This document shows positions 21,935 through 64,000 of a stretch of 64,000 nt of DNA, piece after piece. Position numbers and translations under genes: made by a program. The notes beneath the pieces were generated by a model. That model was given only the letters and a program-made list of their open reading frames with translations, was not told the origin of the DNA and did no database searches. Origin of the DNA: Antedon mediterranea (taxonomy: Eukaryota > Animalia > Echinodermata); the NCBI RefSeq assembly GCF_964355755.1, contig NC_092671.1, positions 13,950,001-14,014,000 on the forward strand, in the 5' to 3' direction. Numbering within the stretch: position 1 is the first letter of the stretch; every line of letters starts with the position of its first letter.

Positions 21935-23615
21935 TCACAATCCTAAAGATTTCCTAACAATTTCTTGCGCTTTTTCTTCAAACCTTTCTCGATCATCACG
22001 CCACATTTTTGATGCATCAACGTTTGCGCCACTTTCATCATTTGGTTCTGAAATGGAAAAGATGGACTATATTTTTACTAACAGTATAATACTGACAAGA
22101 TTCGATCATATTCTTTTTTTTTCCCCAATTGATTTCTTGTCTAATATTATGACAGAGCCCAATATTTATTATTTATATCCTAGTATAGCAAATAATGATT
22201 TATTATAGTTACAGTTTGATTATCAAAGTTCATGAAAAATTATCACTTTCATATCAGAGGTAGCTAAAAATGAAATCAACAAGTCTATACAGTATTTGTT
22301 ACCTGCTAACATGCTTACTACCGACAATAAAATCTTTTCAACACTTTGTACAGGACTCCACCTTTCAGCACTTGTTTCATACCCCATAGGATCATCGCCA
22401 GGTGCGTGAAGTATTGATATACATACACGGCCATCTGAATAAACTATAAAGACAAATTATTCATCAATGTCATTATTTAAACAATAGGACATAATTGTGT
22501 TTTCAGTGATCTGGTTTAGTAGAGTGGACTATAAAAACAGTATTTTTTTTCCACCATTAATCATTTTAAGTTGATTAAGCACGATTTCCACTAAGCGAGT
22601 TTATTTGCACAAATCAGTTTCCCCGAACTAAACTAAAGACATTTGCTGACCGTTCCTTCGCCGTAGCAGGACCCAAAATTTGGAACAGATTACCAAGTCA
22701 CATTAAACACTTAGACGACTATAATCAGTTTAAAAAACATTTAAAAGCACTATATTTCAAACAATGTTACGATACTAATTGATGTGAAGCGCCGCTGATT
22801 ATAATTAAATGTTGTATAAATGTGCGCTATACAAGTAATAATATAATAAATGTGTGCTATACAATAATAATAATAATGGATATAAGCCAGCGTTAAAACA
22901 TTGTTTTCCCCAGTGTAATTCAAGGGAATGTATCCCCTGAAAAGGATAAGTTCTATAATAGTACACCCTAATACAGCAGCAGTACTTACAAACTGACCAA
23001 TAATCATACTTACTATTAGGGTGAAACATTTCACATGTGAACTGCATTTTAGGTGGATTTAAAGGGTAGTCATGTGGAAAATTAATAACTGCTTGAAACA
23101 CACCACCTTCAAAACAAGTGTCTTCTGGGCCACTAATATAAAGTAATACGGTATTAGAAGGAACTATTATTTTTACAAATACAACTTAGCATATATAGCC
23201 TATATAGAGTTAATAAATATACTTTTAAATATCCATGGTTGTTTAATTCAATACTTACGTTATGAGAGCTTCCCATTCAAAAAAATTATCTTCATTTTTT
23301 GGACCAGCTATGATACCTTCAGGCGGATTAACACTAAGTTCTGAAAACAAACATTTGGTTCACTGATATTTAACTGTAACTGTAGTTCCGACTAACCTAG
23401 GGCCGGCTATATTAATCTACTAGGCCAAACAGTTGGGACGAAGCAACCACACTACAGCAATACAAGGGACAAGAACAGTTAAGAGGACTATATTGACGAC
23501 AAGCCAGCCTCTGCCTAGAAAAGTACATTAGTTGCAACTCAGCAATAACTTAAAATAATCATTATAAATTACGTTTATACTCAGCCATAAGTCTTTTTAA
23601 AGCATTGCCAGCCAT
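21935..23615 (-). CDS. UBE2G2: Ubiquitin-conjugating enzyme E2 G2 (Ubc7-like), 165 aa
   Basis: Exons 23573-23615, 23259-23340, 23014-23132, 22303-22443 and 21935-22047 total 498 nt. Protein: [28 protein letters not shown]...[63 protein letters not shown]...KSLGL. It has the HPN motif, the active-site Cys and the acidic loop of the Ubc7/G2 family. AATAAA on the minus strand at ~21900. Confidence 0.97.
22621..22877 (+). mobile_element. 5'-truncated L2/CR1-group LINE (ORF2 C-terminus plus 3' tail) in UBE2G2 intron 3
   Basis: 22621-22782 translates [50 protein letters not shown], followed by GCGCTATACAA and an (AAT)n tail. Confidence 0.85.
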
Positions 23616-34400: not shown

Positions 34401-37400
34401 TGAAGATGAGTTGAAACTTGAAATTATCTTGTCATGAGATGGGTACATCTGTACTTGAAGATGAGTTGAAACTTGAAATTGTCTTGTTATGAGATGGGTA
34501 TCTTTACTTGAAGATGAGTTGAAACTTGAAATTGTCTTATTATGAGATTGGTACACCTTCACTTTAAGAAGAGTTTAATCTTTAAATTGTCTTGTCGTGA
34601 GATGGCTACATCTTTACTTGAATACGACTTAAAACTTGAAAATGTCGTCATGAGATGGGTACCTCTTTACTTGAAGATGAGTTGAGACTTGAAATTGTCT
34701 TGTCAAGAGATGAGTGCATCTTTACTTGAAGATGAGTTGAAACTTAAAATTGTCTTGTCATGAGATGGGTACATCTGTACTTAAAGATGAGTTGAAATTT
34801 GAAATTGTCGTCATGAGATGGGTGCCGCTTTACTTGAAGATGAGTTGAAACTTTAAATTGTCTTGTTATGAGATGGGTACATCTTTACTTGAATTTGAAG
34901 ATGAGATGAATCTTGAAATTATCTTGTCATGAGATGGGTACATCTGTACTTAAAAAAGAGTTGAAACTTAAAATTATCTTGTCATGAGATGGGTACATCT
35001 TTACTTGAAGATGAGTTGAGACTTGAAATTGTCTTGCTATGAGATGGGTACATCTTTACTTGAAGATGAGTTGAAACTTGAAGATGAGTTGAGACTTGAA
35101 ATTGTCTTGTTATGAGATGGGTACATCTTTACTTAAAGATGAGTTGAGACTTGAAATTGTCTTGTCATGAGATGGGTCCTCTTTACTTGAAGATGAGTTG
35201 AAACTTGATAATGAGTTGAGACTTGAAGATGAGTTGAGACTTGAAATTGTCTTGTTATGAGATGGGAACAACTTTACTTGAAAATGAGTTGAGACTTGAA
35301 ATTGTCTTGTTATGAGATGGGTACATCTTTACTTGAAGATGAGTTGAGACTTGAAATTATCTCGTCATGAGATGGGTACATCTTTACTTGAAGATTAGTT
35401 AAATCTTGAAATTGTCTTGTTATGAGATGGGTACATCTTTACTTGAATTTGAAGATGAGATGAATCTTGAAATTATCTTGTGATGAGATGGGTGCATCTT
35501 TACTTAAAGATGAGTTGAGACTTGAAATTGTCTTGTTATGAGATGGGTACATCTTTACTTGAAGATGAGTTGAGACTTGAAATTGTCATGAGATGGGTAC
35601 ATCTTTACTTGAAGATGAGTTGAAACTTGAAATTGTCTTATTATGAAATGACTACATCTTTACTTGAAAATGAGTTGAGACTTTAAATTGTCTTGTCATG
35701 AGATGGGTACATCTTTACTTGAATACGACTTAAAACTTGAAAATGTCGACATGAATGATGAAGTACATCTGTACTTGAAGATGAGTTGAAACTTGAAATT
35801 GTTTTGTCATGAGATGGATACTGCTTTACTTGAAGATGAGTTGAAACTTGAAATTGTCTTACGAGATTGATATATCTTTACTTCAAGATGAGATGAATCT
35901 TGAAATTGTCATGTTATGAGAATGAGATGGGTACATCTGTACTTGAAGAAAAGTTAAAACTAGTGAAATTGTCTTGTTATGAGATGGGTATACATCTTTA
36001 CTTGAATTGAAGAGGAGTGAAAATATCTTGAGATAGGTACCTCTTTACTTGAGGATTAGTTGAAACTTGCAATTGTCTTGTTATGAGATGGGTACGTACT
36101 TGAAGATGAGTTGAAACTTGAAATTGCCTTCATGAGATGGGTACATCTTCACTTGAAGAAGATTTAATCTTGAAATTATCTCGTCATGAGATGGGTACAT
36201 CTTTACTTGAAGATTAGTTAAATCTTGAAATTGTGAGATGGGTACACCTTTACTTAAAGAAAAGTTTAATCTTGAAATTGTCTTGTTATGAGATGGGTAT
36301 ATCTTTACTTGAAGATGAGTTGAGACTTGAAATTGTCTTGTTATGAGATGGGTACAACTTTACTTGAAAATTAGTTGAGACTTGAAATGGTCTTGTTATG
36401 AGATGGGTATATCTTTACTTGAAGATGAGTTGAAACTTGAAATTGTCTTATTATGAGATGGGTACACCTTCACTTTAAGAAGAGTTTAATCTTTAAATTG
36501 TCTTGTCGTGAGATGGCTACATCTTTACTTGAAGATGAGTTGAAACTTGAAATTGCCTTGTTATGAGATATGTACATCTGTACTTGAAGATGAGTTGAAA
36601 CTTAAAATTGTCTTGTTGTTAGATGGGTCCCTCTTTACTTGAAGATAAGTTGAAACTTAAAATTGCCTTCATGAGATGGGTACATCTGTACTTGAAGATG
36701 AGTTGAAACTTGAAATTGTCTTGTTATGAGATGGGTACCTCTTTACTCGAAGATGAGTTGAAACTTGAAATTGCCTTCATGAGACGGGTACCTCTTTACT
36801 CGAAGATGAGTTGAAACTTGAAATTGTCGTCATAAGATGGGTACCTCTTTACTTGACAATGAGTTGAAACTTGAAATTGTCTTTTGAGATGGGTACGTAC
36901 TTGAAGATGAGTTGAAACTTGAAATTGTCTTTTGAGATGGGTACGTACTTGAAGATGAGTTGAAACTTGAAATTGTCTTTTAATGAGATGGGTACATCTG
37001 TACTTGAAGATGAGTTGAAACTTGAAATTGTCTTGTTATGAGATGGGTACATCTTTACTTAAAGATGAGATGAAACTTGAAATTGTCTTGTTATGAGATG
37101 GGTACATCTTTACTTGAAGATGAGTTGAAACTTGATATTGTCTTGTCATGAAAATGAGTTGAGACTTGAAATTGTCTTGTTATGAGATGGGTATATCTTT
37201 GCTTGAAGATAAGTTGAAACTTGAAATTGCCTTCATGAGATGGGTACATCTGTACTTGAAGATGAGTTGAAACTTGAAATTGTCTTGTTATGAGATGGGT
37301 ACCTCTTTACTTGAAGATGAGTTGAAACTTGAAATTGTCTTATTATGAGATGGCTACATCTTTACTTGAAGATGAGTTGAAACTTAAAATTGTCTTGTTG

Positions 37401-40400
37401 TTAGATGGGTACATCTTTACTTGAAGATGAGTTGAGACTTGAAATTGTCTTGTCAAGAGATGGGTGCATCTTTACTTGAAGATGAGTTGGAAATTGAAAT
37501 TGTCTTGTAATGAGATGTGTACATCTACACTGGAGGATGAGTTGAATTTTAACATTGTCTTGTCATGAGATGGGTATACATCTTTACTTAAATTATGGAT
37601 GAGTTGAAAATATCTTGAGATGGTACCTCTTTACTTGAAGATGAGTTGAAACTTGAAATTGTCTTGTCATGAGATGGGTACACCTTCACTTGAAGAAGAG
37701 TTTAATCTTGAAATTGTCTTGTCATGAGATGGGTTCCTCTTTACTTGAAGATGCGCTGAAACTTGAAATTGTCTTGTCATGAGATGGGTGCCGCTTTACT
37801 TGAAGATGAGCTGAAACTTGAAATTGTTTTGTTATGAGATCGGTACATCTATACTTAAAGATGAGTTGAAACTTGAAATTGCCTTCATGAAGATGATTGC
37901 ATCTTTACTTGAAGATGAGATGAATCTTGAAATTATCTTGTCATGAGATGGGTACCTATTTACTTGAAGATGAGTTGAATCTTGGAATTTTCTCGTTATG
38001 AGATGGGTACATCTGTACTTGAAGATGAGTTGAAATTTGAAATTGTCATCATGAGATGGGTGCCTCTTTACTTGAAGATGAGTTGAGACTTTACATTGTC
38101 TGTCATGTGATGGGTCCCTCTTTACTTGAAGATGAGTTGAAACTTGAAATTGTCTGGTTATGAGATTGGTCCCTCTTTACTTGAAGATGAGCTTAAACTT
38201 GAAATTGTCTAGTCATGAGATGGATACATCTTTACTTGAGGATGAGTTGAAACTTGAAATTGTCTTGTCATGAGATGGGTGCCGCTTTACTTGAAGATGA
38301 GTTGAAACTTGAAATTTTCTTGTCAAGAGATGAGTGCATCTTTACCTGAAGATGAGTTTAATCTTGAAATTGTCTTGTCATGAGATGGGTACCTATTTAC
38401 TTGAAGATGAGTTGAGACTTTATATTGTCTGTCATGTGATGGGTCCCTCTTTACTTGAAGATGAGTTGAAACTTGACAATTTCTGGTCATGAGATTGGTC
38501 CCTCTTTACTTAAAGATGAGTTGAGACTTGAAATTGTCTAGTCATGAGATGGGTACATCTTTACTTGAAGATGAGCTGAAACTTGAAATTGTCTTGTCAT
38601 GAGATGGGTGCCGCTTTACTTGAAGATGAGTTGAAACTTGAAATTGCCTTCATGAGATGGGTACATCTGTACTTGAAGATGAGTTGAAACTTGACATTGT
38701 CTTGTCATGAAGATGAGTTAAAACTTGAAATTGTCTTGTTATGAGATGGGTACACCTTCACTTTAAGAAGAGTTTAATCTTTAAATTGTCTTGTCGTGAG
38801 ATGGCTACATCTTTACTTGAAGATGAGTTGAAACTTGAAATTGCCTTGTTATGAGATATGTACATCTGTACTTGAAGATGAGTTGAAACTTAAAATTGTC
38901 TTGTTGTTCGATGGGTACATCTTTACTTGAAGATGAGTTGAAACTTAACATTGTCTTGTCATAAAGATGAGTTGAGACTTGAAATTGTCTTGTCATGAGA
39001 TGGGTCCCTCTTTACTTGAAGATAAGTTTAAACTTAAAATTGCCATCATGAGATGGGTACATCTGTACTTGAAGATGAGTTGAAACTTGAAATTGTCTTG
39101 TTATGAGATGGGTACCTCTTTACTCGAAGATGAGTTGAAACTTGAAATTGCCTTCATGAGACGGGTACCTCTTTACTCGAAGATGAGTTGAAACTTGAAA
39201 TTGTCGTCATAAGATGGGTACCTCTTTACTTGAAAATGAGTTGAAACTTGAAATTGTCTTTTGAGATGGGTACGTACTTGAAGATGAGTTGAAACTTGAA
39301 ATTGTCTTTTGAGATGGGTACGTACTTGAAGATGAGTTGAAACTTGAAATTGTCTTTTAATGAGATGGGTACATCTGTACTTGAAGATGAGTTGAAACTT
39401 GAAATTGTCTTGTTATGAGATGGGTACATCTTTACTTAAAGATGAGATGAAACTTGAAATTGTCTTGTTATGAGATGGGTACATCTTTACTTGAAGATGA
39501 GTTGAAACTTGATATTGTCTTGTCATGAAAATGAGTTGAGACTTGAAATTGTCTTGTTATGAGATGGGTATATCTTTACTTGAAGATAAGTTGAAACTTG
39601 AAATTGCCTTCATGAGATGGGTACATCTGTACTTGAAGATGAGTTGAAACTTGAAATTGTCTTGTTATGAGATGGGTACCTCTTTACTTGAAGATGAGTT
39701 GAAACTTGAAATTGTCTTATTATGAGATGGGTACACCTTCACTTTAAGAAGAGTTTAATCTTTAAATTGTCTTGTCGTGAGATGGCTACATCTTTACTTG
39801 AAGATGAGTTGAAACTTGAAATTGCCTTGTTATGAGATATGTACATCTGTACTTGAAGATGAGTTGAAACTTAAAATTGTCTTGTTGTTAGATGGGTACA
39901 TCTTTACTTGAAGATGAGTTGAGACTTGAAATTGTCTTGTCAAGAGATGGGTGCATCTTTACTTGAAGATGAGTTGGAAATTGAAATTGTCTTGTAATGA
40001 GATGTGTACATCTACACTGGAGGATGATTTGAATTTTAACATTGTCTTGTCATGAGATGGGTATACATCTTTACTTAAATTATAGATGAGTTGAAAATAT
40101 CTTGAGATGGTACCTCTTTACTTGAAGATGAGTTGAAACTTGAAATTGTCTTGTCATGAGATGGGTACACCTTCACTTGAAGAAGAGTTTAATCTTGAAA
40201 TTGTCTTGTCATGAGATGGGTTCCTCTTTACTTGAAGATGCGCTGAAACTTGAAATTGTCTTGTCATGAGATGGGTGCCGCTTTACTTGAAGATGAGCTG
40301 AAACTTGAAATTGTTTTGTTATGAGATCGGTACATCTATACTTAAAGATGAGTTGAAACTTGAAATTGCCTTCATGAAGATGAGTGCATCTTTACTTGAA

Positions 40401-41272
40401 GATGAGATGAATCTTGAAATTATCTTGTCATGAGATGGGTACCTATTTACTTGAAGATGAGTTGAATCTTGGAATTTTCTCGTTATGAGATGGGTACATC
40501 TGTACTTGAAGATGAGTTGAAATTTGAAATTGTCATCATGAGATGGGTGCCTCTTTACTTGAAGATGAGTTGAGACTTTACATTGTCTGTCATGTGATGG
40601 GTCCCTCTTTACTTGAAGATGAGTTGAAACTTGAAATTGTCTGGTTATGAGATTGGTCCCTCTTTACTTGAAGATGAGCTTAAACTTGAAATTGTCTAGT
40701 CATGAGATGGATACATCTTTACTTGAGGATGAGTTGAAACTTGAAATTGTCTTGTCATGAGATGGGTGCCGCTTTACTTGAAGATGAGTTGAAACTTGAA
40801 ATTGTCTTGTCAAGAGATGAGTGCATCTTTACCTGAAGATGAGTTTAATCTTGAAATTGTCTTGTCATGAGATGGGTACCTATTTACTTGAAGATGAGTT
40901 GAGACTTTATATTGTCTGTCATGTGATGGGTCCCTCTTTACTTGAAGATGAGTTGAAACTTGAAAATGTCTGGTCATGAGATTGGTCCCTCTTTACTTAA
41001 AGATGAGTTGAGACTTGAAATTGTCTAGTCATGAGATGGGTACATCTTTACTTGAAGATGAGCTGAAACTTGAAATTGTCTTGTCATGAGATGGGTGCCG
41101 CTTTACTTGAAGATGAGTTGAAACTTGAAATTGCCTTCATGAGATGGGTACATCTGTACTTGAAGATGAGTTGAAACTTGGCATTGTCTTGTCATGAAGA
41201 TGAGTTAAAACTTGAAATTGTCTTGTTATGAGATGTGTAAATCTTTACTTGAAGAGTTGAACCTTGAAATTG
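28450..41272. repeat. Satellite array, 55-bp monomer, ~220 copies, with higher-order duplications
   Basis: Consensus GAGATGGGTACATCTTTACTTGAAGATGAGTTGAAACTTGAAATTGTCTTGTCAT (for example, starts at 28856 and 28911). A ~134-bp spacer occurs at 30881, 32324 and 33721. Confidence 0.98.
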
Positions 41273-46948: not shown

Positions 46949-49900
46949 TTAAAAATCGCTGTCTTCGTCTATGACCTCCTGTTTCTCTTCCTCCTCCTCC
47001 TCATCATCATAAGTGTACTTGACAGTGGTACGTGCTCTTCCTCCAGCACGTACTGGAACGACAGGACTGCTAAGCTCATCATCATCATCATTAAATGATA
47101 AGTCGCTCTCACCTGATGACCACTGCATCTTCTTTTTCTTGGGCTGTTAGGAAAAAGGTCCAATTTTTAATTATTATTATCCATAATAATATAAGAATAA
47201 TTATTGTCTATTAAAAATGCTTAAAATATTATGAGAAGTGTTTTTAAACACAATACTACGGGTAAATAAGGCGTTGATTTTTACCTTGCATAGATCTGCA
47301 ATACGCAGAGCACAGATCTTTAAGCTAGGCGTATCTAAATTAGACTGGGTGGATTAAATTTATAGACACTGAGATGACAGCTTATTTAAGAAACTGTGCT
47401 CAAGATATAATTCTCTCATTTACTGTTAGCCAAGTGTGGGATTTTGGTAACCTGTAACTTCTCAATCATTTCTCTATTTACCTTGGAAGCTTTCTTTGCT
47501 GCTTGTTTCTTGACCGGCTTCTTTGTTACTTCCTCATCAGAATCAGAATCAAGTAATATTGGCTTCTTTTGCTTCTTAACCGGTTTGGCATCATCTATTA
47601 AATAGAACAGTTGTTAGTAGACTTCATTATTACATAACGACAACAAAATAATTGACAAATGGTAATAAGGTATAGCTTATCAAAGCCTATAAATGAACGT
47701 AATTTCTTGAAAAAATGAGAAAACTAATAAGCAGGATTAAATGGCATTGAAAAACCATCACCGTAACTTCAACGGGTTTGTAGTTAAACAGTCATGGTAA
47801 ATCAAGGTCTGTCAATATGTTTTTAATTCTTAATGAACAGATTGGACAATAAAGTGTTTGAACTGAAGCGTATACAATGCTTGTTTGTGAAAACAATATC
47901 TACCTGAATTGCTAGATGCTTTTTTGGGAGCTGCTGCCTTCTTAGGGGCAGCCTTCTTCTTAGGCTTGCTTGTCTCCGCTGTGCTGGATGACTTTCCAGT
48001 TGCTGAACAAACATAAAGTAGGTAAATGTTTATTTAAAAAATAAATGTTAACTTTTTGGTTAAACCAGTTGACAAGTACTTACTTGCTACGTTAACATTT
48101 TTTTTTAAATATCCATTTGAAACCAGATGAAATTTTTTGAACGTGTAAATGTTTAATTGTTCATAGTTCTAGTATAGTTTCATTTAGGCAACATACATCT
48201 CAAGACGAATAAACTGTTTATTATATTTTAAGATTCCTGGTACCACAACAGTATTTTTGTTGTTTTGTTGTGGTTACTGTACACATTATTTAAAATTCTG
48301 TAATAGGCTTATTATACCCATAACATTTGACAACTAAGACAATTTCCAGATTCAGATTTATAGGTCATTTCGGAAATTCATTAGCTTGTTCTCACTCATA
48401 CAAAGGGTAAACATTGACAACATTATAGGTAACTTCCAAAACATCCAGTACCATTATATCCTCATTATACCTTTTTTCTTTTCTGCTTTCATCATCTCAT
48501 CAAACGCATCAATCTTATCAGAAGCACCATCAGACTTCTTATCAGAAGCACTATCGGACTTCTTATCAGAAGCGCTATCAGACTTCTTATCAGATTTCTT
48601 ATCATCAAAATCGTCATCATCATCATCTGACCAATTGTCCAATCTTGGTTTTTTTGTTGGTTGAAATCCTAACTTGCTTTGTTTCATTTTGTCACCTACT
48701 AAAAGAGGTTTAAAAATGTTACTGAATCATGTTTTGTAGCAAGCTGACCAAAATAAGAATAAGAACTAATGCTATCGCACAGCTATGTAAATCTCAATTC
48801 AAAGTCTCAATTTCATAATCAAAAGAAAATTAATTAATGTAATTATGTAGTTAATGTTAAAAGCCTCATTGATTAAATTTTATACATCATATTCCTCTCA
48901 TGTATTTATCAAAATAGAACCAAAATAAAACAAATGCAGCAGAATACTTTCTTAAATATCATTTATTCATAAATTGCCTTTAAAATCTATCATAACTATG
49001 AAAAAATGAATAATGAAAGGTTCTATCACCTTATGATAATTTTTAAACTTTTCCATAACGCTGGTAAAAAATTATGGTTCAGTTCTAAGCCGTTCCGTAG
49101 TGAATTTACCCAACAACTACTGGCTTGACCATTTGCAAATGTAGTTCTATAATTTGTACTTAGGAATTTATCTGTGGTCAGTTTTGAAAATGGTAATAAT
49201 CTAAAATTATAATTCTGCATTGCATTTGTTTTATAGTATTTTGGAATAGATGCTAGGGTGGAAAATTCTCTGAGTGGTGGGTTGTAGAAAAGTGGCAAGT
49301 TTGTACCATTAGATGCTTTGGACTTGTCTTTAGCAGCCAGTCGTTCAGCTAGTGACAACACGGCTGTTTCATCTGTTGGTTCATCCTTTATAAACAGTTC
49401 TTTCTTGATGTTGTCTTCTTTTGGTTTCTATTAAAGAAATATGAAACCAACTAAGTATGAGTGAGTGGCTGAGCAGTAGAAGGTAGAGAAACTGTAATCC
49501 ACAGCCTTATGACAAGGGTTTGAGGCTCACTTGCTTCATGATTCTGGTGGTAGAATGAGTCTTCTCAGATAAGGACTATAAACTGTAGGCCCAGTGTACA
49601 CAAAATGCTTGTGTGCACTTAAAAGAACCTAAGTACATCTTTTGAGTAAGTTAAGATGGACTAGCTCACAGTCACTGTTATGGACATACGCTGTAGTTGG
49701 CAACAGTGACATGACAAGAATACAAGACATGATCACTAAATACCTCTAGCTGCTGCTTTGTGTTGTATAGAATTATCCATTGCACATAAATACTAGACAA
49801 TAACCTATGAATATTCATTAATGGCCATTATGACACCTATTTACTAGAGTATAGAGTATCTCTTTATATAGGCATATCCATTGAATTGAGTCTCTTCACC

Positions 49901-52900
49901 TTTTGTTCATTGGCTACAATAGTAATTGCACAATAAATGTATTGGTAACCAAATAGTTATGAGATTTATTTAAATACAAAAGTACTAAAATAGTTAAAAT
50001 GTACATGACATAATTTTGTATAACAAATTATGGAGCTACAAGGCTACTACAAAAAACTCACCCTTTTCCTGGAAATTTTGGCCTTCAAAGCTTCATCAAT
50101 TCTAGGTACAACACGACGTCCCATAGGAGATGGCCTAGTTTCAGCAAGTACTACGCGTTTCTTTAGCTTGCCACCTCCAAGTTTATTTTTGGCTTTTGTG
50201 GCAGCTTTTTCCGCAATTTTGTCTCCTGCAATTAAATCATCTCTTTCTTTCTGTTCAACAACCTATTTCAGAGAGCAAAATGAAGTTCATTATGTATAAA
50301 GTTAGAGAATACAAATCAAGTGTTGTGCCCAGAAGAACTGAAAAACAATAGTGTAACATTCAGCAATTACAAGCACATCAAAAGATCTATTTTACACAAT
50401 TCATGCACAAACATGTCAAAGGTATGTAATACCATGTCAAGGTGTTCGTAATTATAATAATGATTTGTTTTCTATTTTAGGAAAATTTAAAACATAATCT
50501 CCTTAAAATAAAATTTACAACAATAATATTTTTCAGTTTTTGAACAAGATAAATGAATTAAATGTAAAGCAAAACTAATAATCTTATAATAAAAAAACAT
50601 TTTCAATAAAAGAAGAAAAGAATTATACCTCCAATTCTTCTAGGAAACCTTTGATGTCCTCTTTCCAGAGTATTATGGGGGTTTTTCTCCTGAGGGTAGC
50701 AAGTTCTTGTGCTTTGCCATCACGATTCTTAAGTAACTCGTCTTTCTTCTCCTTAGTCAAGCTCCACATTGCCATACCAAGTAAATAATTATAATCAGGG
50801 CCAGATCCTGAACTTGCTGATGACACGGTGCTCTCTGTGTCGTCTACATCTTCCTCTGTGTCAGTATCAACACTTGCCAACAGTTCTCGGAGGGCCTTGA
50901 CAGGGTCACTTTCATACCCATTGCGGAGAAGTAAGCTTATCATGTCTTTCTTTGTCTTGTTTTCTATGGTAAAAAAAACACACAAAATAGTAATCAATAA
51001 TCTTGCTAAGCTGTTAAATCATCAACTATAAACAAATCGTTGCAGACAGGGATTTGGAAGATGTAAACATAAATATACATGCGTATAAGCTGGCACTTTT
51101 CATTTGTGCAAACAATTCACCTAGTGGAAAATTGGCTTTGGAGATGGAACCACGCTTTTAATTCCAGTGCCTAAAAGAGTAACCTTTATATAACTACAAT
51201 GACCTACTTCCATGCACATGCATGTTCAATGACAACGCAATGCAACAATAACACAAACATACCGACAACAAGTTTCCCTTCAATTTTCTCTAAGATGAAC
51301 CTAGCCTGGTTGTTCAGTCTGTTGCTTTCCGCTTCCAATAACTTCTCCATATGCACCTTACGCTTGTGGTAGTAACGTAAACGGAGATCGTAGAACTCTC
51401 GCAAGATATCCATGACAGTTTCATAACGTTTGATACAGCCAAACTCATCAAACAGAACCTAGTTAAAGACACAATGTAAAGTTCTGTCTACACTATCAAA
51501 CTAGTGCCCAAATATTGTAGTGATATGATGTCATCGTTCTATATATGGGCACATCACACATTATTGATAGTGTAGAGTTTTAGCTTTGGTTTATATTTCA
51601 CACAACTACTGAAATAACTATAGAATGTTATTATACCATTACACTTGGGCATGGAATAGAATACAGTTTGTAGACTATACATAAATAATGTATGTACCAA
51701 TAACAACATGGTTTTTTATTTGCTAAAATTCGGTACATATTTTTCAAATATAAATACTCACCATATTTTGAACTGATAAATTAGTTTGTAATTTGAAAGC
51801 CTTGTGAAGTCCAGTATGCTCCAACTCAGCCAGCTTAGTCTCTGCCAACTTGACTACAAACCTGACAGTCGTGTCTGTGTGATATTCCTTGTAATCTCTA
51901 ATGTAGTATATAATGATGGCAAATAGTGATTTTCAGGTTTTAACAAGACACTAGTCTTAGGGGCTTTCGATGACAAAAATATGTCATGGTTCTTTACTGT
52001 ATACGCATGCAGGAATATCGGTACGCATTTCGTCACTATAATTCATGACGTAGCAAGTAGTCTTTATTATAGACCATTGCTATACCTCGGTCTAACCTGT
52101 AAGCGGTCTTTAAAATTAATGCCTACTCGAAGGAGTCTTAATAGAATGTTAAACCTCTCTTTTTGTTGCTTATACGTATTATTGATCGTGAAAGACAACC
52201 AATTTAAGAGTTTTAAGTGTTAAATCAAATAATAATGGTGATTTTATTCTTATATAGGACTAGAATAGATTTTCTCGCGTAGTAAAAATGTACGTACTGT
52301 TATGAGTGTAAATTGAACAAGCTTGACGAACATTACCTTATTTGGTATTCTACGCGTACGCGGATTGCCCTCAATTTGTTACTGTACGCGCTCAATTTGT
52401 TACTTTACGCGGTCTTAGTTAAGACTGTTTTATAGCAATGGTCTAACAGGGGTGGCTTTAGTAAGAGCGTCTATCTGATAAAGCCGGTTTTAATCGGGGA
52501 GTTAAGACCATCAGTTAAAATAAGACTGTTTTATAGCAATCAGGTGATGATCGATGATACATAAATTGACCTGACCTAGGTTGGTTATCAGCAAAATTGA
52601 AAGCTCCCTAACCATTTGAAACAATAATGGGTGTTTTGTTGTATATTGTAAAAATATGCTATTCAACAATTTTTATTGGCCTAAAATCACACAATAAATA
52701 GTTGTTACTCACTGTATAACGGAAGGCTGTTTGTCAGTGCCATACAACATGGGCTCCAGCACATTCTCCTTGTAAGTCTGGGTCCATGTTCTGACTGGTA
52801 GTTCAGTAATCTCAATGGTGTTATTGTCAATGATTGATATTTCTCCCATTATTACATACTTGCCTGTTTCAATCTCCTCAATGGTGCCTTTAAAACCTTT

Positions 52901-55900
52901 GTATGATGGCAACTAAAAAAAAAATAAACAGATAATGAAAAATAGTGGCACTATAAGAAATTGCCTTGCATTTAACTCCTACAGTCAGGGTTCAAATCCC
53001 AAAGTTAGCATTATCCTCTAGCAAATTGATCACTGTTGTTAAATGCTTACCATTGGTAGAGGCTCCTCACCATCAATCATCCTAGAAAAATTGGTAATTA
53101 TTTCTCGGATGTCATAGTTTGGAACTTTGGTACTCCAACCGGTACCAATACCGTCTGTGCCGTTTACAAGTACCATTGGAATGATTGGGCAATACCATTC
53201 TGGTTCTATTTTCTGGTTGTCATCATACTGGTGCTTTAGTAGTGCATCATCATTTATGTTGAATAAATGTCTGGACACAGTACTAACGGTAGAGAATAAT
53301 AAAAATAATAAATAAAACTTAATACAGCATAAATTGCAAATAGGACTATATTTAAGTAAATAAAACAATGATCTTCACAACATATGCATCCATTATATAT
53401 TTTTGTATTTTTTATTCAAAACATAGGAGCCAAAGGCTGAATTAAGAATTATATTTTAATATAACTATTCAATTAAATTAAATATTATAAAATTGCTCAT
53501 CATTTTATTGGACGCTAAAGATTTTGTAGTTACCAAGAAACACCTGAACAGTCAGGGGAAAATGAGGTTTTATCAGATAATCTATATTGTTTTGACAACT
53601 CTTGTAACATGACCACAGTGCTGATTTTGCCATTCCAACGAACCCCCACCCCCCCCCCCCCCCCCCAACTGTGAACAGTATTCTCACCTTAGTTGTGTGA
53701 AGATATACCTAGGACTGGCTGCATCCTTACCGCCATGCAGTCTTGTACCAAACTGACCAATTGGAAGAAGCAGATTGAGGTTGTTGCTTCCGATGTAATT
53801 CTGGGCCATGTTAATGATAGTGCTCATTAAGGAAGTCTGTACAGGATAATGATGAAATATTATGTTATATATTGTTCAGTATATGACTTCATCAAACTGG
53901 AAGCAAGAGTTCACATTCATATATATGTACAGCATGGATTTTTCTATGAATACCATTAACCATTGTTTAATCAATTAACATGAATTTCCTAATTAGCTCT
54001 TACCACATACATTTGTTTATTTATGATTTGCAATAATAATAACATACAAATAGTAATTCATTGCTGACTCTTACCTCACCGTGATGGTAAGCTGATATTT
54101 CAGCGACAGAGCCTGCCATCTGTGCCACTTTCACCTCTCTCTTCTCATATTTTTTCATTGCTGCAAACAACACTTTTCTCTGGCCAGGCTTTAGACCTAT
54201 GAATTTAAACAAATGAAACTGTAGCTATTAAAGAGTTATTTATGGATTTTTTTGATGACACAGTATAAGTCAAATTCTTTTGCCATCTTCTCTTATGCTC
54301 TTCACCCTCCAAGTACTATTCTCTTCCAAAATGATTAACTATATTTAGTATCCAATTACAAGCCAAAGTTATGCCTGTGCTATCAACAGTATCTTTAACA
54401 GTAATTTATACTAGAAATGAACTTGGCTACCTACCATCAACCATGCTTGGAATTGAACGCTCATTGTCAGCATTTGAGAACAATACAAGTTCTTTGTTTA
54501 TGAATTCATTGTAAGTGATGTGTCTTGTATCTTTGTTGTACAAATACATCTGAAAAAAGTTTCATTTTTAGAAGATTTATCATTTTAAAATCCATATTAA
54601 TTCAGTGCTTTTGAAATTAAAATGGTTACAAATGTCTAGCAAAAAACACAACATACTATATATCATTACTGATTCAACTTAATTCAAATCATATTAGTTA
54701 TAAATACGAAAGAAACTTACATCTGCAAGTCCGTCTTCTCTTCGTCTTTTACGTTCTTGTAACCATTCTGTTAGCCATTCTTTTCTGTCATCTGCTTTCT
54801 TTTTGCTGAATGCCTACAAATGTATATGAAATTAGACTACTGCATTCAAATGTAATTTTAAAGACTTTATCTGTGTGTTCTTGAGATAGTTGTAAATAAC
54901 AGAACTTAGATGCAGGAAGTGTATACAAACAAACCCCTTCTATTAATATTTTCTGTGGGATTGGAAGCTTACGAGTGACTTTTTTTTTTTAATGTAAAGT
55001 GTACTTAAATAGTTTGCAAACATTATAAGATAAAATAAAGAAAGATAAGAAGATAAGTTTATGTTCTCAAGTACAAAGAGTGCTTTAGATTTTCGTTGAC
55101 TAACCACCAATCAAAGTCAAACCTGTGACGAGGTGAGGAGTCATGTCCTAATATACCTGCATTGACACAATGCACTAAGATGGGGTAAGTTTGGTCAATG
55201 GTCATCGCAAACCGAAAGCTCTGTAATATAATTCCCACGTAAGGACTACTTACCAATTCAATAGCAGCATCATCCTCAGGACCTGCGTATCTGAATGGAA
55301 TACGATGTCTCAACATATCAGAGAAATACTCTTTAGCCTCTTTCATTGTGCTGGTACCCAAACCTATAAGCACATCACAAACAAATTTCACAATTTTGTA
55401 AATTTATTAGTTGCTTCCTGCTGTCTTCAATTCAATACCCAAAAAAAAGATTCTTCTTGAGGTCTAAAAGGTCTCAAGTAGTAAACATTAAAAGGTACAT
55501 CTGGAATACCAGATATACTGCAGTAGGTTAGACAAAGGGTACCTTGTGAGGGTAGAATTTACTGTATACTTGTTTAGCCTAAAAAGAGTTCAAATTGATA
55601 AGCTCATAGGTAGGTATACCAAAAAATTCAAACCTTTGTAGTATTTTATCTTGTAGGTTTTCCAGTTTTCCGTTTCTGACTTCCATTTTTCAAACTCAGG
55701 AAGAGAGAAGAAAGATTTTATATCTTTCGCCTTAGTAACCTGAAAAAATAAATTAAAAAATATTTAAAGATGCATTGTTCCCCCAAAACATGAAAAATAA
55801 AGATTAATAAAATTGGAATTTGAATAGATTATTTTGTAGTTTTGATACTGTTTTTACTTATAAAATGACAATTTGACTGTTTATTGCTTTAAATTTAAGA

Positions 55901-58900
55901 TGTATTGTCCCCCAAAAACATGAAAAATGAAGATTAATTAAATCAGACTTTGACTGTTATTTTGTAGTTTAATCAAGTTAATCACTTCCATAGACAAAAT
56001 AATGAAAATGTTTTCGCTTATAAAATGACAAAATAAATGGTTAAATTCAATCAAAAATAAATCCATTTTGTTTTATAATTAAATTGTTTAAGGTAAATAC
56101 ATTTTTTTTCAATACAAATTTTGGTCAAAGTGGATATCTATTATGTTACATTAAAATGGATTATTCAACAAAATTTGTTTTAAGAATTAATTTGTCCAGG
56201 GGGACACTACTTCTTTAATTTTAAATGTAAATATGTATATGTTTGTATGATGTAATATGTTTAAGCGGATATTAGCCCTTGATGGCATTTGCAGCAATAA
56301 AGAAATTGAATTGAAGAAATTGAATTAGGGTTTCTTTTTTCCGATCCAATTTTTGGTCAAAGTCGATAACTATTAGGCGACATTAAAATGACATATTCAA
56401 CAAAAAAACTTTTAAGAATTATTTGTTCAGGGGGACAATACATCTTTAACACAATCAACTATCACATCAGTTTTTATTAAAAATGCAATCAGAAGCCAGT
56501 CATTGTGGCCAAGCCAATTTCAGAGAATTGATCGTATAAACAAGAAACAAACCTTAACAATAGGAGTAATAAACTCCTCTACAAATTTGTACCGCAATAA
56601 ATGAGGCCAGTTAGTTTGTATGAAGTTGATAAGCAGTCCCTTGATATGAGAACCATCTTGATCCTGATCTGTCATAATCATCACTTTGCCGTAACGTAGT
56701 GACTTGAGGGTAGACTCCTCCGAGTACTTGTTTTTGTATTGAAGACCAAGAATCTTTATGATGTTGTTTATCTCTGCATTCTCCATAATCTACAACATTT
56801 TTAGAAAATATACATTTTTTTTATCAAAACTGTAAATTGTCATAAATGTCCTTATAAGGACCAATAATTTAACATGCTCTTAGTATAAAATAAATAATAC
56901 AAAAAAAACCTTTTTTCATTCCAGTGAAAAGGTCGCTTGGATTGTCTTATTGAGGTGTATGATAGTAAAAATATTTTTTAGCATTATACAATATTGTTTA
57001 CATTACATTAACTTAATACTATGCTTAAGTATAACAATCTTTAAACCAAAAGTCAATTGAACAAAATACATACCTGTTTATGCGACGCCTCACGAACGTT
57101 CAAAAGTTTACCCCTAAGTGGGAATACACCATAGCGATCACGACCTACTACACCTAGACCACTGACAGCCAATGACTTGGCTGAATCTCCCTCTGTTAGA
57201 ATTAGTGTACAATCTAGAGAATGTTTCCCACCGGCGTTGTTGGCATCATCTAGCTTTGGAATACCCTTCAGTTTAGAATGTTTTGTTGTATGGCATTTCT
57301 TGTCAAGTTGACTCTGTAATCAGAAATTCAAGTACAGTATTACTTAATGCTTACAACATACATTTTATATTGATGTATTTACACTGACAACACTTTGTAT
57401 AGCTGCTGCACCTAAGGTATATATTTCTAATTTGGCACACAAAAGATAAAGAAAGTAGAAATCAATTGATACAAGACTAATGAGAGAGACAAGAGTATGC
57501 GTATGCTTTAACATTTAGACATAATTCATTATTGAATACGTACCTGAGCTTTAAATTTCATCCAAGACATTACACTCTCCACAACTCCACATCCCATTGC
57601 CTAAAAGTAGAAATAAATTGAAAACAAAATCATATAGATTGTATTTTCTTAATTCATTTCAAGGTATTCTTCTAACAATATGGAATAGATATTTTTTTTC
57701 AATATAAACTCATATTCAAGATTGACTCAAAATGAATAGATGGTAGACATATTTGAGAATTTAACATATTGTTCTATTTGATAATTTCCAAGAATCCAAC
57801 AAATTCTCAACACGTCTTCTGCCTCTGGAGTAATACATTTGTTTTAGTTCAAGTTCAAGTTCAAAAAACATTTATTTATTCAACAATGGCATTATACAGT
57901 ATAATATAATTATAGGTGTGTACATAAATGAAAACATAGTAATAAGCCATCATTTGGGGTCTTCTCTAGAAGAAAACAAGTTTCTTGTCTCGAGAAAGAC
58001 CCCAGAAACAATTTATTCTATCTGTACAAGGAAGCCACAGTATAGAAGCTTCTTGGATACTAGGTAAAACTAGGTAATGCTAGGTAAAACTAGATAGGTA
58101 AATCTATACAGAACAATGGTATTCATAATGAGCGTATTCTTATCAAATAAAACCTTACCTGCTTGAAGAATTTGTCACTAAGTTCACACTTAGACCCAAA
58201 TTTCTTAGCCTGCAGTGTCATGTTCTCTTTGGTTTGAGAATCAAAAGATGGATTTTCTATCAGGCAGTTTATGAACACCCATAAATGATTTTTGATCTAA
58301 TGGAAAAAACAAAACATTCATTCATTGCAATTAGTATATAATATATAGTATAGTAGTGGAAACTGTAGATTGGTGGTTCCACTTGGTTCCAACTAGAGAT
58401 GTGAATCAAATGCGTAAGGGCAATTATTGTGATTTGATCAATCACAAGTGATGGATGATTCAAACCATTGCTTGTCATTGGTCAACTCGCTTGTGTTGTG
58501 CTTATGTAATTGTGCGTCGGAACAAAGCTTGACAAAGGAGCATCTATAAAATGTTTATACATGTATACAGACAAGCTCAAATATAGAAAAAGAATATAAC
58601 AATCATTAAGCAGTGCCTACCTGAAACGGCTTGATATTAAGGCCACCTTTGTTCTTCTTCTTAATGGTCTCCATTAATTTTGTGACAATTTGGTCAGTGA
58701 CATAATCTGTATGTCGTCCACCCTACAAAAGAAACAAGCAGTTACTAAATAAATAAATTATAATGAACTTCTTAGATCTGGTCTTAAGCTACAATAACAG
58801 TAGAGTGACCTTCAACTGGATGGGAATGACAAGTCAATCCTTGGTGTTTGCCCTATTCTGACATAAATTGTATTTATTGAGAATACTTGGGTGGGATTCG

Positions 58901-61900
58901 AACGCACGACCTCCAGATCAATAGCCTGGCGTTCATACCTCTAGACCATCGAGCTTGCACTGATGGGTCAAGTCAATCCTTGCCAACAAGTGCATTGACG
59001 TTCGAGTGACAGCATCTTAGAGGAAATTTCCAAGTTTTTAATAATTGCTTTTAAAAAATAGCAAAGAACAATAATTAAGAATCACATGCTTATTACTACT
59101 GTCACCATTGACATCATCATCAATTATGAAATATTGCTTACTTTAGTGGTAGCAATACTGTTTACAAAGCTGACTTGCTGGAATCCCTTTTCACTCATAC
59201 AAATGCAGACTTCCCATCTTGGATTAACAACCTCATGTACTACTTTAAGCTTGTTACCCTCTTCATCCACTTTATCCTTGAGGTAAAAGTCAACATAAGA
59301 CTTGAAACCATTTACCTAAAATAAAATTAGAATAGAAAAAATGCCACTTACAATCAAAAGCCCATATTCAGAAGTATTCTATTCTCTTTCTGAAAACAAT
59401 AATTGATTTTAATCATTTTACATTTTTATAAGAATGTTTTACTTACAGGTAATTTCTTTCCATTCAAGAACACCTTAACTCCTTTTGCAGCACCAGCTAT
59501 GTCGTATGCCCTTCTTGTAAGTAGAGCCACCGTGTCTGCATCAAGTGATTCCATATGGAACTTTGGTAAATCTGGCTTGAAGGTGATCTCTGTGAAGTCC
59601 TTGCCATCATAAGGTATAATCTTGTGTGAACCAGCTTTACCCATGTTGTCTGTCCATGTCTGTAGACATTAAGTGTCAATGTACTTAACATAGTAATAAT
59701 GATCAAGCACTCAAGTGATACATTTAGATAACTGGCCTTCCAAATGCTTTTGCCAAATTGGGTAAAAAAAAGTACCTAGTTGTAAATAAAGTCCATCTAG
59801 AAGGTCTGATAAACTAGCCTGGTGCTATTAGCTAGCTCCTTTGATATTATTACATAATATTTTACACAAGGCTAGTACCATGACATCCTCGGCATGCCCA
59901 CTCTTTCGTAAACTATTTTGTCAAACAAAATTGATATAATACTCACTTGACTAAACTTTTTCTTGTATTCTTTGCATGCTGTTACTACTCTAAACTTTTT
60001 ACTGAATATGTTACATAACTTTGCACCATAACCATTACGCCCGCCTAAAGAAATTTAAATATTTCATTATGCACCACCAAAAAACACAGCATAATCCATG
60101 CATGTTGGAATATGTCAATTTTTTTTGTTGAAGTCCATTTAGTTACATACAGTATCGAAGCTTGAATGTTTAGAATTGGATATGTTTGTTAGAAGACACC
60201 CTGCCAGTACAAGTTGGTTTACCTCCTACCATGGCTTTTGGATGAGATGTTTAACTTCTTGTCCCGTATACATAAAAGCATAAAAAAGATCTTGGTACTC
60301 ATTAATTGAAATAAATAATTGAAATATATATTTATACTGGGTAACCTCTTCAGTCAAAGACTAGTCTCCCAGAGGGCCCAGTTGGTGATCAGTGGCTGTG
60401 ATGTACTAGTACACCGGGGTAACCCCCTACTCGTCTCGAAAAATGTACTAGGTTCTTTAAAGTGCACACGAGCTAGATGTGTACACTGGACCTACGGTTT
60501 ATAGTCCTTATCCGAGAAGACTCGTTCTACCACCAGAACCATGGAGTGAGTGAGCCTCGAACCCCTGCCGATGTTATGGCTACGTAATTACGGTTCCACT
60601 GTCTTAACCGCTCGGCCACTCACTCACTTAAGGTATGCAATAATGCCACCGTGATCAAATACTAACCTGTAACTTTACGCTCTTCGTCATCATAATTACT
60701 TGATGTTAACAAATGACCAAAAATCAACTCAGGTACAAACACTTTTTCAGTTTGGTGTTCAACAATTGGGATACCTTTACCATTGTTCCATATAGTGATG
60801 GTATTATTTTCACTGGAAAAAATAAAAATAAATAATTCCTATTAGTTATTAAAAATATAATATATGTGTACATAAAAGAAAGCCATCAGATGACCTAGGC
60901 TTCAGAATTTGAAAAAATCTGCTTAATTCAATTAAAAAAATGCATCAATCCTGTTGACCCTTAATTGTCACAAATAGAACAAAAGGTGATTATTTGTTGG
61001 TTTGTAATAGAGGACAAAAAGAGCATAGAAGACTAAGTAGACTTACGGCTCAATAGTGATCTTAATAGTGTCCATAGATGAATCTCTCTGTTTATTATCA
61101 GCAGCATTCACTGAAATAAAAATAAAATAATAATTAAAATACATTAGATCACTTTTGTAGCTTAGCTTAGGGTGAATATGTATGGAAAGAAAATTGTACT
61201 AGTTTACAATCAGAGTTGAAATTTAAGCTGGACAGAAGGCGTAAAATAAATGTTTTGATCCAGAAGAAATTCTAGCATAGTCACCTCAGCACATCTACAT
61301 TTATGATAAATTAACAAATTGGATCAATAATAAAACAGAAACAACTATTTATTTAATAATTAAAAATCATTAGCCATATTGGACATTCCTTACCTAGGAT
61401 TTCATCAAATATTTTATACAACCCAGGTACAAATGTAACCTCTCTATTTACAAGACCTTCTTCTCCATCATGTACCCACATTTGCTGTGAAGAGAAACAT
61501 GTTTAATTTAACCTTGATTTACTAAGTTGATATTTGACATCTAAAGTTATGCTCTGGTATTCCTAAAATTACTGATTCATTATGGGGCGAATTTTAGTGG
61601 ATGATGAGCTCCAAAACTTCTCTAAAAGGTTTTTAAATTGGTTAACATTTATAGCTTCTAGGGCCAAGTTGTTCCATGATTATGTTTTGATACAGTATAA
61701 ACTCACTGATTAAACCAATTGCATATGAAATATTTAATATTTTTTTTTACCATGAAATGGAAACTGATTACATTATTAATACCTGTTTGACAGGCTCAGT
61801 TGATCCAATGTAGGAGTCTGGTCGAAGCAGTATATGCTCCAACTGTGTCTTCTTTTGGTAGATCCTTTCCACTGACATCCTCTTATTTGATTTCTTCTGG

Positions 61901-63012
61901 TGTGGTTTTGCCTCATCTTCACTATCATTATCAAATATAGTCTATAAAAAAGATACATATCATTAGAAGAAGAAGCAAAATATTGGTAATTGTGTATGTA
62001 ATTGTAATACTGTATTTAATGTATATTGGAAAAAATAACAAGATTAAATTTTATAGAGTTTGTTTTTATTTGGGGCATAAAGCTGAATCATATTATTCAA
62101 CCCCTACTACTGCATTCAGGTTGAGTAAGGAAGACCTAAAAATGTTTAATTAGACGATCAGGATAAACAGGTTACTAATTTCATGAACAATCTGAAATGT
62201 ACGTCCAAAATTCGGCGCTAGTTCCGTTTCGCACCTGTAATTTATTTCGACTCAAAATGTGTTAAGAAACTTTATCGTGAGTACCACACCTTAGAATTAG
62301 GCCTCAAAAATACTTTTACGAAGGAGATCACACAAAAAGTGACAAATAAATGCTTTAAATTGATGAATTTACAGACGCTTTTCTCGCACATCGGTTCGTC
62401 AATTTCGCATACGCCATGTTCAATGTTGTTGTTTCTATGGAGCGCCAAAAGAGCATTTATTTGTCACTTTTTGTGTGATCTCCTTCGTAAAAGTATTTTT
62501 GAGGCCTAATTCTAAGGTGTGGTACTCGCGATAAAGTTTCTGAACCCATTTTGAGTCGAAATAAATGAAAGGTGCGAAACGGAACTAGCGCCCAAAATTC
62601 TCTGGGCATGGTTTCTTTTGCGGTCAAGACACAACATATTGAATTTTGGATCTCCTGAATTTTTATCAAGAAAAATGTGTGAAATGGATGACAAAATTCA
62701 AAATATAAACAAAATTTGCAGTCCTGACCTCTAGGCCTATTTATTTCATCAAGTACTACCTAGGCATAGCCCTACTTTAAAGAGCTAGGCCGTTAACTTT
62801 AGATGGACTAGGCCTAGGCCTAGAGGGTGTTCCATATCAAATCCTACCACATCACATACAGAAGGCCAACACCTACTCTAGACTGAGTGAGGTAGGCTAG
62901 AGGGCCTCAAGGTTAGGTCTAGCCTAGGCTAGCTATATTGAAGGGGACTAGCCTAGATTATTTATGCTAAGTTCTTTATTCATCTTACCCTCAACGGTGT
63001 TGTGGCATCCAT
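46949..63012 (-). CDS. TOP2: DNA topoisomerase II (type IIA), 30 coding exons, ~1496 aa using the proximal first exon
   Basis: GT-AG exons with consistent phases: 62989-63012, 61783-61941, 61394-61484, 61047-61110, 60667-60812, 59947-60044, 59447-59659, 59142-59315, 58621-58722, 58159-58296, 57544-57600, 57074-57313, 56553-56789, 55634-55739, 55254-55363, 54721-54813, 54435-54549, 54075-54196, 53688-53836, 53051-53282, 52713-52912, 51762-51897, 51263-51458, 50629-50963, 50062-50262, 49307-49427, 48471-48695, 47904-48002, 47482-47594, 46949-47143 (sum 4491 nt, no internal stop). Motifs: YQKKTQLEHILLRPD, FDEILVNAADN, GGRNGYGAK (GHKL ATPase), EGDSA, PLRGK, MTDQDQDGSHI (TOPRIM), ASPRYIFT (catalytic Tyr), and a Lys/acidic C-terminal tail. 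Confidence 0.97.
49458..49646 (+). mobile_element. Older, CpG-depleted copy of the same SINE
   Basis: Colinear with the reverse complement of ~60435-60626. Confidence 0.85.
51478..51587. mobile_element. Fragment of a small Harbinger-like MITE (second fragment at ~21735-21840)
   Basis: TCTACACTATCAA...TTGATAGTGTAGA inverted repeat and a shared GTGATATG/GCCCAAATAT core. Confidence 0.55.
52070..52445. mobile_element. MITE-like element in TOP2 intron 21
   Basis: Perfect 15-bp IR TAGACCATTGCTATA / TATAGCAATGGTCTA. An extra copy of the right-end motif lies at ~52521-52543. Confidence 0.6.
55768..56445. mobile_element. Nested pair of TTAA-flanked (Kolobok-like) MITEs plus a LINE-like tail in TOP2 intron 13
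   Basis: Outer element TTAA|AGATGCATTGTTCCCC...GGGGACAATACATCT|TTAA, with an inner copy at ~55898-56214. An AATAAA-(GAAATT/GAATT)n tail lies at ~56296-56326. Confidence 0.8.
57846..58005 (-). mobile_element. LINE-type 3' end (stem-loop plus (TTGAAC)n tail)
   Basis: GGGTCTT...AAGACCC hairpin at ~57957-58002. On the minus strand AATAAA is followed by TTGAAC x3. Confidence 0.5.
58790..58958 (-). mobile_element. tRNA-derived SINE head (different family)
   Basis: On the minus strand, TGGTCTAGAGG (A box) and GTTCGAATCCC (B box) lie within 58885-58958. There is no proper acceptor stem. Confidence 0.6.
60305..60628 (-). mobile_element. tRNA-derived SINE with a Deu/Nin-like central domain (young copy)
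   Basis: A box TGGCCGAGCGG and B box GGTTCGAGGC. Core GGATAAGGACTATAAACCGTAGGTCC...GCACTTTAAAGAACC...GAGTAGGGG..CCCCGGTGT, then an AT-rich tail. The domain assignment is from recalled consensus. Confidence 0.85.
62214..62592. mobile_element. Young palindromic MITE in TOP2 intron 1
   Basis: Near-perfect ~140-bp IRs (GGCGCTAGTTCCGTTTCGCACCT... / ...AGGTGCGAAACGGAACTAGCGCC). An 8-bp TSD CAAAATTC lies at 62206-62213 and 62593-62600. Confidence 0.92.
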
Positions 63013-63154
63013 AATTAACCATAAACTCCAAACTTAAATCAAAACAAAGATATGTTCTATACTTATTAGAAAACTTCCGTCGTTTTTTTAGCTGGATGAC
63101 AACAAACCAGAGAATATCAATATCGCTTGCTCTGCTTCTTGATGAACGTGAAGA

Positions 63155-63210
63155 AAGTTCCCGCGTATAGATAATTATTTAAATTTAAGAATCTGATTGA
63201 CCAATAAGGT
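63155..63210 (-). promoter_or_regulatory. Putative cell-cycle-type proximal promoter of TOP2
   Basis: TTCCCGCG (E2F-like) at 63158-63165, TTTAAA (CHR-like) at 63178-63183 and CCAAT at 63201-63205, about 150-190 bp upstream of the ATG at 63012. Confidence 0.5.
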
Positions 63211-63267
63211 CACACTTTTCATTCTTAAGAGGGCGTAAGTATAAAATAAATAAGAACATAAACTTAC

Positions 63268-63309
63268 CACCCACTTTAGACCTTTTTTTGAGTCTGCTTT
63301 CGATTCCAT
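63268..63309 (-). CDS. TOP2: Putative alternative (distal) first coding exon of TOP2, encoding MESKADSKKGLKWV
   Basis: ATG at 63309 in ataATGg context, 14 open codons, then a consensus GTAAGT donor in phase 0, matching phase 0 of exon 2 (TIFDNDSE...). The joined peptide GLKWV|TIFDN resembles human TOP2B ALTWV|TLFDQ (recalled, not searched). Confidence 0.72.
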
Positions 63310-64000
63310 TATAATCGTAAATATACAATAAAATTCCTAGGTGTCTTTCAGTACCTTTGTATTCGGTATCTGTTTTCTAGTTGGTTTGCTAACGTTTCTG
63401 TCTACTACTTAAAAAAAACACCGGTTGGTGATCTGACGATTTTTTCACTCAGTCAGTAGTCTTTGTCACAGGAGGGAAAAATCTTCATAGATCCTAATTA
63501 AAATTCCACTTACAGTTACAAATAACTTCAATAGGTATATAAAAATAGTCAGATTCTCTTGTTAAACAAAAAAGTGATTGTATAGCCTCTATCATGCCAA
63601 AAATACAATATATATTCTTAACCTTTGCAGTTCAATGGAAGCAGACATCTTGCTCACCGAGTTAAACGTTCACAGACTATTGTGAATGTATATGTTGTCC
63701 CATTGGATAAGAATTAATTGGTATCCTGTCGACTTATAGTAGCTGCTGAATCTTATATGTATTATTATTATTCATAAAATAAGTGTACTGTATATTAAAT
63801 TCCATTTTTTTTTATCAAGCAAGCACACAGTTGAGTTCAAGAAAAAAATCGATTTGGTACACATGTTGGTGGCGGGTCCGGTCATAGTTCAAACATGGAG
63901 TAAAGAATAAGTTACTCCATGGTTCAAACAAAGAACTAATAAAATGATAATGTTCCCGGTCCCTATATAAATCTGTAGTCTTTGGACAACATGACTGCGC

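Follow-up and report, generated by a model that had tools for sequence, protein, structure and literature searches.

Vertebrates carry two TOP2 genes of the same family, TOP2A and TOP2B. TOP2A serves dividing cells and TOP2B non-dividing cells, and both are major drug targets. This division of labour is usually seen as a vertebrate invention and is mostly ascribed to the C-terminal domains. The main study of TOP2 (TOPIIA) evolution in animals is said to be Moreira 2022; the gene structure was reportedly covered by Lang 1998 and Sng 1999, and the splicing by Davies 1993. The two genes also differ at their start: TOP2A has a short exon ending in P-L-x, and TOP2B has an exon ending in L-x-W-V before T-L-F-D. 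Invertebrates are described as having one TOP2 in the accessible text of PMC13213696.

Isoform separation after duplication, in which ancestral alternative exons end up as one per duplicate, has been described in the accessible parts of two studies (Abascal 2015, PMC4494069; Lambert 2015, PMC4417111), with teleost mitf among the cited cases, and TOP2 would follow the same pattern. The cases of PMC4494069 mostly concern homologous exons that were split in fish lineages, whereas the first exons of TOP2 are non-homologous. The accessible main texts of PMC4494069 and PMC4417111 do not mention TOP2. No prior description of a first-exon partition in TOP2 was found among the titles and abstract starts of the open literature, and an earlier mention is possible. 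The type of event is already known, and the TOP2 example is apparently not in print. Automatic isoform models of TOP2 in the crinoid Anneissia japonica (XP_033100509-511) already include both starts. The RefSeq models of Anneissia and of other invertebrates are all named alpha-like, and these names draw no link to TOP2A and TOP2B.

At the same exon 1–exon 2 junction, human TOP2B has two variants, beta-1 and beta-2, which differ by the presence of five residues after valine 23 (PMC9592559, accessible text). These variants depend on where exon 2 of a single paralogue begins, whereas in the crinoid Antedon mediterranea it is a choice of first exon.

Here, we analysed one stretch of A. mediterranea DNA of 64 kb (the window). 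We consider it probable that its TOP2 gene has two mutually exclusive first exons (W and PL), that this pair is as old as the bilaterians and that, after duplication, TOP2B kept the W exon and TOP2A the PL exon. Vertebrates have the two starts on two genes with different C-terminal domains, while in Antedon they belong to one gene in which everything is shared from exon 2 onwards. The exon pair gives a concrete ancestral state for TOP2A and TOP2B.

The TOP2 locus and its two first exons

The window holds a complete TOP2 gene on the minus strand, running from ~63337 to 46952. Its closest homologue is the TOP2 of Anneissia japonica, with 993 of 1158 core residues identical (86%), and Antedon TOP2 was sister to Anneissia TOP2 within the echinoderms in both trees (FastTree and IQ-TREE). 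Residues 1 to 1481 of the Anneissia protein map along the window (tblastn). This protein has all five Pfam domains and the complete chain of a type IIA topoisomerase (GHKL ATPase, transducer, TOPRIM and DNA-cleavage core).

The distal first exon, which is TOP2B-like and is called the W exon here, lies at 63268–63337 (minus strand; limits from letters 1–70 of a spliced contig of run X1, see below). It comprises a 5′ UTR of at least 28 nt and 14 codons (63309–63268) ending in L-K-W-V, with the donor GTAAGT after 63268. The coding part of the proximal, TOP2A-like PL exon lies at 62989–63012 (minus strand; from the sequence and the match to Anneissia isoform X3). It has 8 codons ending in T-P-L-R, and the donor GTAAGA follows after 62989. 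In both mini-exons, the ATG has A at −3 and G at +4. An earlier note, made from the letters alone, had proposed these two ATG mini-exons upstream of exon 2, and their positions, Kozak bases and donors were all confirmed on the minus strand. The shared exon 2 (61783–61941, minus strand) is preceded by a T-rich phase 0 acceptor and leads from the motif T-I-F-D-N into the start of the ATPase domain. The other coding exons (46952–61487, minus strand; located by tblastn with Anneissia TOP2) encode the ATPase, the TOPRIM, the DNA-cleavage core and the C-terminal domain and run to the stop codon.

Both starts have a counterpart in Anneissia. The first eight residues of isoform X3 (XP_033100511.1) are identical to the PL peptide of Antedon (8/8). 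In RefSeq isoforms X1 and X2, exon 1 ends in G-L-K-W-V, and 9 of the 14 residues of the Antedon W exon are identical to their start.

W and PL are the only two mini-exons that lead from an ATG to a phase-0 GTRAG donor within the 2059 nt preceding exon 2. As a chance control, this stretch was simulated 1000 times with a first-order Markov model. The simulations contained a mean of 0.47 ATG-to-phase-0 donors; two with the same Kozak context occurred in 3 of 1000, a peptide with the PL ending in 1 of 1000 and one with the W ending in none (0/1000).

Among the 16 AG dinucleotides between the W and PL donors, two keep the frame of the PL exon, and each of these runs into a stop, so the two exons cannot be chained into one protein. 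This agrees with the earlier note, which had seen no convincing in-frame acceptor. Splicing of the two exons in series was rejected because of these stops and of the contig joining W directly to exon 2. Each mini-exon carries a start codon and a donor of its own and is not chainable in frame with the other, as would be expected of alternative first exons. They do not qualify as homologous (tandem-duplicated) exons, as their ends do not cross-score; for sequences of 14 and 8 codons, a very old common origin is nevertheless conceivable.

Five sequencing runs of one organism were listed, none of them recorded as RNA, and run X1 alone was transcript-like. It yielded a contig of 5850 nt, the pieces of which match successive separate TOP2 exons in order, and which hence is derived from mRNA. 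Letters 1–70 of this contig correspond to 63337–63268 without a mismatch, and letters 71–229 are exon 2. Beyond 63268, the contig continues as 61912–61941 of the window, and the PL exon is skipped. A DNA contig from run X3 covers the same region unspliced. Exon 2 directly follows the W exon in the X1 transcript: the junction 63268→61941, which the earlier note had singled out for mapping, is present in a spliced contig and fits the mutually exclusive first exons proposed there. Neither the PL exon nor the junction 62989→61941 is covered by the contigs of run X1, a single run whose contigs show presence and not absence. We infer its use in Antedon from isoform X3 of Anneissia.

An out-of-frame ATG in weak context (63020–63022, minus strand) precedes the PL start codon by 10 nt. 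Provided that PL transcription begins further upstream, this ATG could reduce translation of the PL form.

Between the PL exon and exon 2, the intron contains a MITE-like inverted repeat (62211–62595) with arms of 144 nt that are 96% complementary. By depth it is a high-copy element, and it has no bearing on the first-exon pair. Other high-copy interspersed repeats are located in TOP2 introns at about 55670–56670 and 60012–60679.

The exon pair among invertebrates

Thirty clusters were looked up, 18 of which are named invertebrate bilaterians; all consist of automatic models, taken as annotated. Both starts were found on one gene in 10 of these 18 clusters. Five of the ten same-gene pairs come from echinoderms and represent four of their classes: Anneissia, Amphiura, Patiria, Acanthaster and Apostichopus (PL weakened to A-L-K). 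The others come from the hemichordate Glandiceps, from amphioxus (Branchiostoma lanceolatum and a B. floridae hybrid) and from the snails Pomacea (P-F-K) and Littorina. In all ten pairs, the two forms part exactly before the motif T-[LI]-[FV]-D and then agree in all of the following 1100 residues. An annotation error would hardly account for ten independent pairs that share the W and PL motifs.

As the pair is present in snails too, it can be assumed for the common ancestor of protostomes and deuterostomes. The pair thus predates the vertebrate duplication, as proposed in the earlier note, and it is older than was proposed there, since gastropods carry both starts.

In the remaining 8 of the 18 clusters, the annotation does not combine the two forms on a single gene. 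PL alone is annotated in four sea-urchin clusters (P0184, P0221, P0270 and P0094), and W alone in the Holothuria and Babylonia clusters. The Octopus/Argonauta cluster has one form per species, PL in Octopus and a W variant in Argonauta. The one Limulus gene has neither start. Neither start was found in three further clusters, which group with arachnids, spiders and flatworms. Of the relatives that the earlier note had suggested for comparison, sea stars, a hemichordate and amphioxus show both starts in their proteins, and sea urchins show PL only; the W exon may have been lost in the echinoid lineage or missed by the annotation. In cephalopods or their relatives by tree (P0297, P0199 and P0211), the W start reads K-W-E instead of K-W-V.

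Corals and a sponge have a PL/PF-type start (A-L-K in Oculina) and, in addition, a model beginning at a Met of exon 2. Both models were seen in the pairs P0138/P0030, P0133/P0061, P0119/P0135 and P0303/P0230. The four clusters of this kind that were looked up lacked the W form. Perhaps these animals reflect a state with two promoters before the W peptide arose.

Isoform X1 of the Bolinopsis TOP2 (P0304) carries an N-terminal extension with many Arg, Lys and Phe residues and few acidic ones. By eye, it resembles a mitochondrial presequence.

Starts of vertebrate TOP2A and TOP2B

Of 334 proteins fetched, the 216 that contained the exon-2 motif and a core of sufficient length were placed in a tree (163 distinct cores). 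Teleosts, squamates and frogs made up most of the vertebrate sample, which included one lamprey paralogue and no TOP2A of a chondrichthyan. In a quick IQ-TREE analysis, the invertebrate genes fell outside a single vertebrate clade (SH-aLRT 100), in which TOP2A (SH-aLRT 99) and TOP2B (SH-aLRT 100) were separated. By this quick tree, Antedon TOP2 lies outside the vertebrate duplication and is a pro-orthologue of both genes.

The TOP2B clade (n=50) contained 42 W starts, no PL start and 8 others. The TOP2A clade (n=58) contained 38 PL starts, one W-like start and 19 others, which were mostly truncated or mis-predicted. The W-like start was discarded, being a fragment without a start Met. When distinct Met-starts were scored against invertebrate exon ends only, 22 of 28 TOP2B starts were W, one was PL and five were neither; the match of the one PL start falls inside exon 2, and it was discarded. 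For TOP2A, the same scoring gave 30 PL starts out of 38, no W start and eight that were neither. A W-type query, which was expected to rank a TOP2A with a W start high, returned none. By these counts, the PL type matches TOP2A and the W type TOP2B, in line with the alpha-like and beta-like N-termini suggested before.

An alignment in the supplement of PMC11172036 shows S-P-L-Q at residues 4–7 of human TOP2A and L-T-W-V before T-L-F in human and elephant-shark TOP2B. A proper first exon is missing from its coelacanth rows, and it has no rows for five other basal fishes that were sought. A splice point of human TOP2B lies after valine 23 (PMC9592559, accessible text). Hence, the human start sequences that the earlier note had given (MEVSPLQ for TOP2A and the start of TOP2B) were right by this alignment and the valine 23 junction. 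For TOP2A, mis-predicted models change their sequence right behind the P-L-x position, which indirectly supports an exon boundary right after P-L-x.

A single pre-duplication gene with both exons is represented by ten outgroup pairs, including amphioxus, and each vertebrate paralogue shows a different one of the two types, and only that type, at the protein level. That TOP2A and TOP2B each received one of two ancestral first exons is thus well supported by the protein sequences, and the split would date to the base of the jawed vertebrates or earlier.

In the lamprey cluster, all eight members are of the W type (8/8). FastTree placed the cluster with TOP2B (0.998), and IQ-TREE left it unplaced. 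In AU tests, neither pairing was rejected (p 0.337 with TOP2B and 0.105 with TOP2A). Cyclostome paralogues have been reported to group apart (PMC10081982, accessible text).

Could the TOP2A start resemble the invertebrate PL exon by convergence, with only the W exon truly inherited? The PL motif consists of three residues only, amniote TOP2A lacks the T-L-F-D motif behind its start, and the vertebrate exon boundaries were taken from proteins and not from DNA. We nevertheless regard convergence as unlikely, as P-L-[KRQE] occupies the same place in fish, frogs and invertebrates (3–9 residues after the Met and directly before the exon-2 motif), the G-P-L-K of fish is also the form of sea urchins, sea stars and the periwinkle, and the mis-predicted TOP2A models switch at that same point. 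Still less probable is that the PL exon is a relic or an annotation artefact and that W is the only transcript made in Antedon. Its Kozak bases and donor are intact, its 8/8 identity with Anneissia compares with 86% in the core and 9/14 in the W exon, and ten independent pairs are annotated; the missing cover in run X1 and the out-of-frame ATG before the PL start speak for a relic.

If the exon pair was divided between TOP2A and TOP2B as we prefer to read it, the following sequence of events can be proposed. In Antedon, the distal W exon is spliced straight to exon 2, and the PL exon would likely be spliced there from a promoter of its own. The common ancestor of protostomes and deuterostomes likely already had the pair. 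After gene duplication, TOP2B likely retained the W exon only and TOP2A the PL exon only. Promoter choice would set the short peptide that caps the flexible N-terminal strap, with the body of the enzyme otherwise identical. Two tiny and very old N-terminal motifs would thereby be singled out in the strap. The strap is called unconserved and unresolved in structures (PMC9592559, accessible text). In the predicted structure of a W-type sea-cucumber protein, residues 1–78 have a pLDDT below 50 (mean 53), which is uninformative on the motif.

A proposed promoter choice and other features of the window

The 255 nt between the two exons (63013–63267, minus strand), which lie within the first intron of the W transcript, are the putative PL promoter and 5′ UTR according to a motif scan. 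Their CpG o/e is 1.19. The scan found an inverted CCAAT (63205–63201), an E2F-like GCGGGAA (63164–63158) and an ETS-like site (63079–63074); E2F-like, ETS-like and inverted CCAAT motifs were all absent from the 291 nt before the W ATG. The E2F-like site occurs seven times in the 64 kb, and 0.03 occurrences would be expected before the PL exon. As diagnostic marks, the CCAAT and CHR-like matches were rejected, as they are at chance level. The end of the PL peptide, T-P-L-R, matches the full CDK consensus S/T-P-x-K/R. In a hand-picked list of PL starts from corals to crocodile (n=30), 17 had S/T-P and 12 the full S/T-P-x-K/R, and the S/T-P site was absent from the other 13. The human TOP2B promoter has two CCAAT boxes (PMC13213696, accessible text); accordingly, CCAAT is uninformative on the PL promoter. 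Human TOP2A is phosphorylated at S4, and the N-terminal strap lowers the ATPase rate of TOP2B (both PMC9592559, accessible text).

On the PL side, the E2F-like site and the CDK-type motif offer weak hints from sequence. Together with the S4 phosphorylation and the effect of the strap, they lead us to an even judgement on PL as the form of cycling cells. On this judgement, the proximal PL promoter would be a cell-cycle promoter and the distal W promoter a housekeeping one, and the PL peptide would carry a proline-directed phosphosite. For the wider claim, the balance is equally level: the bilaterian ancestor would already have switched one TOP2 between a cell-cycle (PL) and a housekeeping or post-mitotic (W) promoter, and the duplication would have frozen this switch. 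Corals and the sponge may show this switch in a state that preceded the gain of the W peptide. If true, the alpha/beta division of labour would be older than the vertebrates.

Somewhat less probable, in our view, is that the exon partition is real and the invertebrate promoters are split along another axis (maternal/germline versus somatic, or by tissue), the proliferative/post-mitotic split having come after the duplication. This would fit the fact that CCAAT is common to both human promoters. Moreover, sea urchins show PL only and some groups show neither start, so not every animal requires the two. Against this weigh, if weakly, the E2F-like site and the CpG-rich stretch, seen before the PL exon only and in one genome, and the CDK-type motif in many PL starts of the hand-picked list.

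Downstream of TOP2 and on the same strand, the window contains exons of a ubiquitin-conjugating enzyme (22226–23185, minus strand; Pfam UQ_con), the first exons of which were not located. We take it to be UBE2G-like. LTR-retroelement-like ORFs in several frames lie in pieces at 16541–18934 (minus strand): gag-like, aspartyl protease (weak) and reverse transcriptase, with no integrase core among the ORFs of ≥70 aa. A satellite array of 12.7 kb (28450–41202) consists of a 55-bp unit with strong GC skew and bears signs of internal higher-order duplication.
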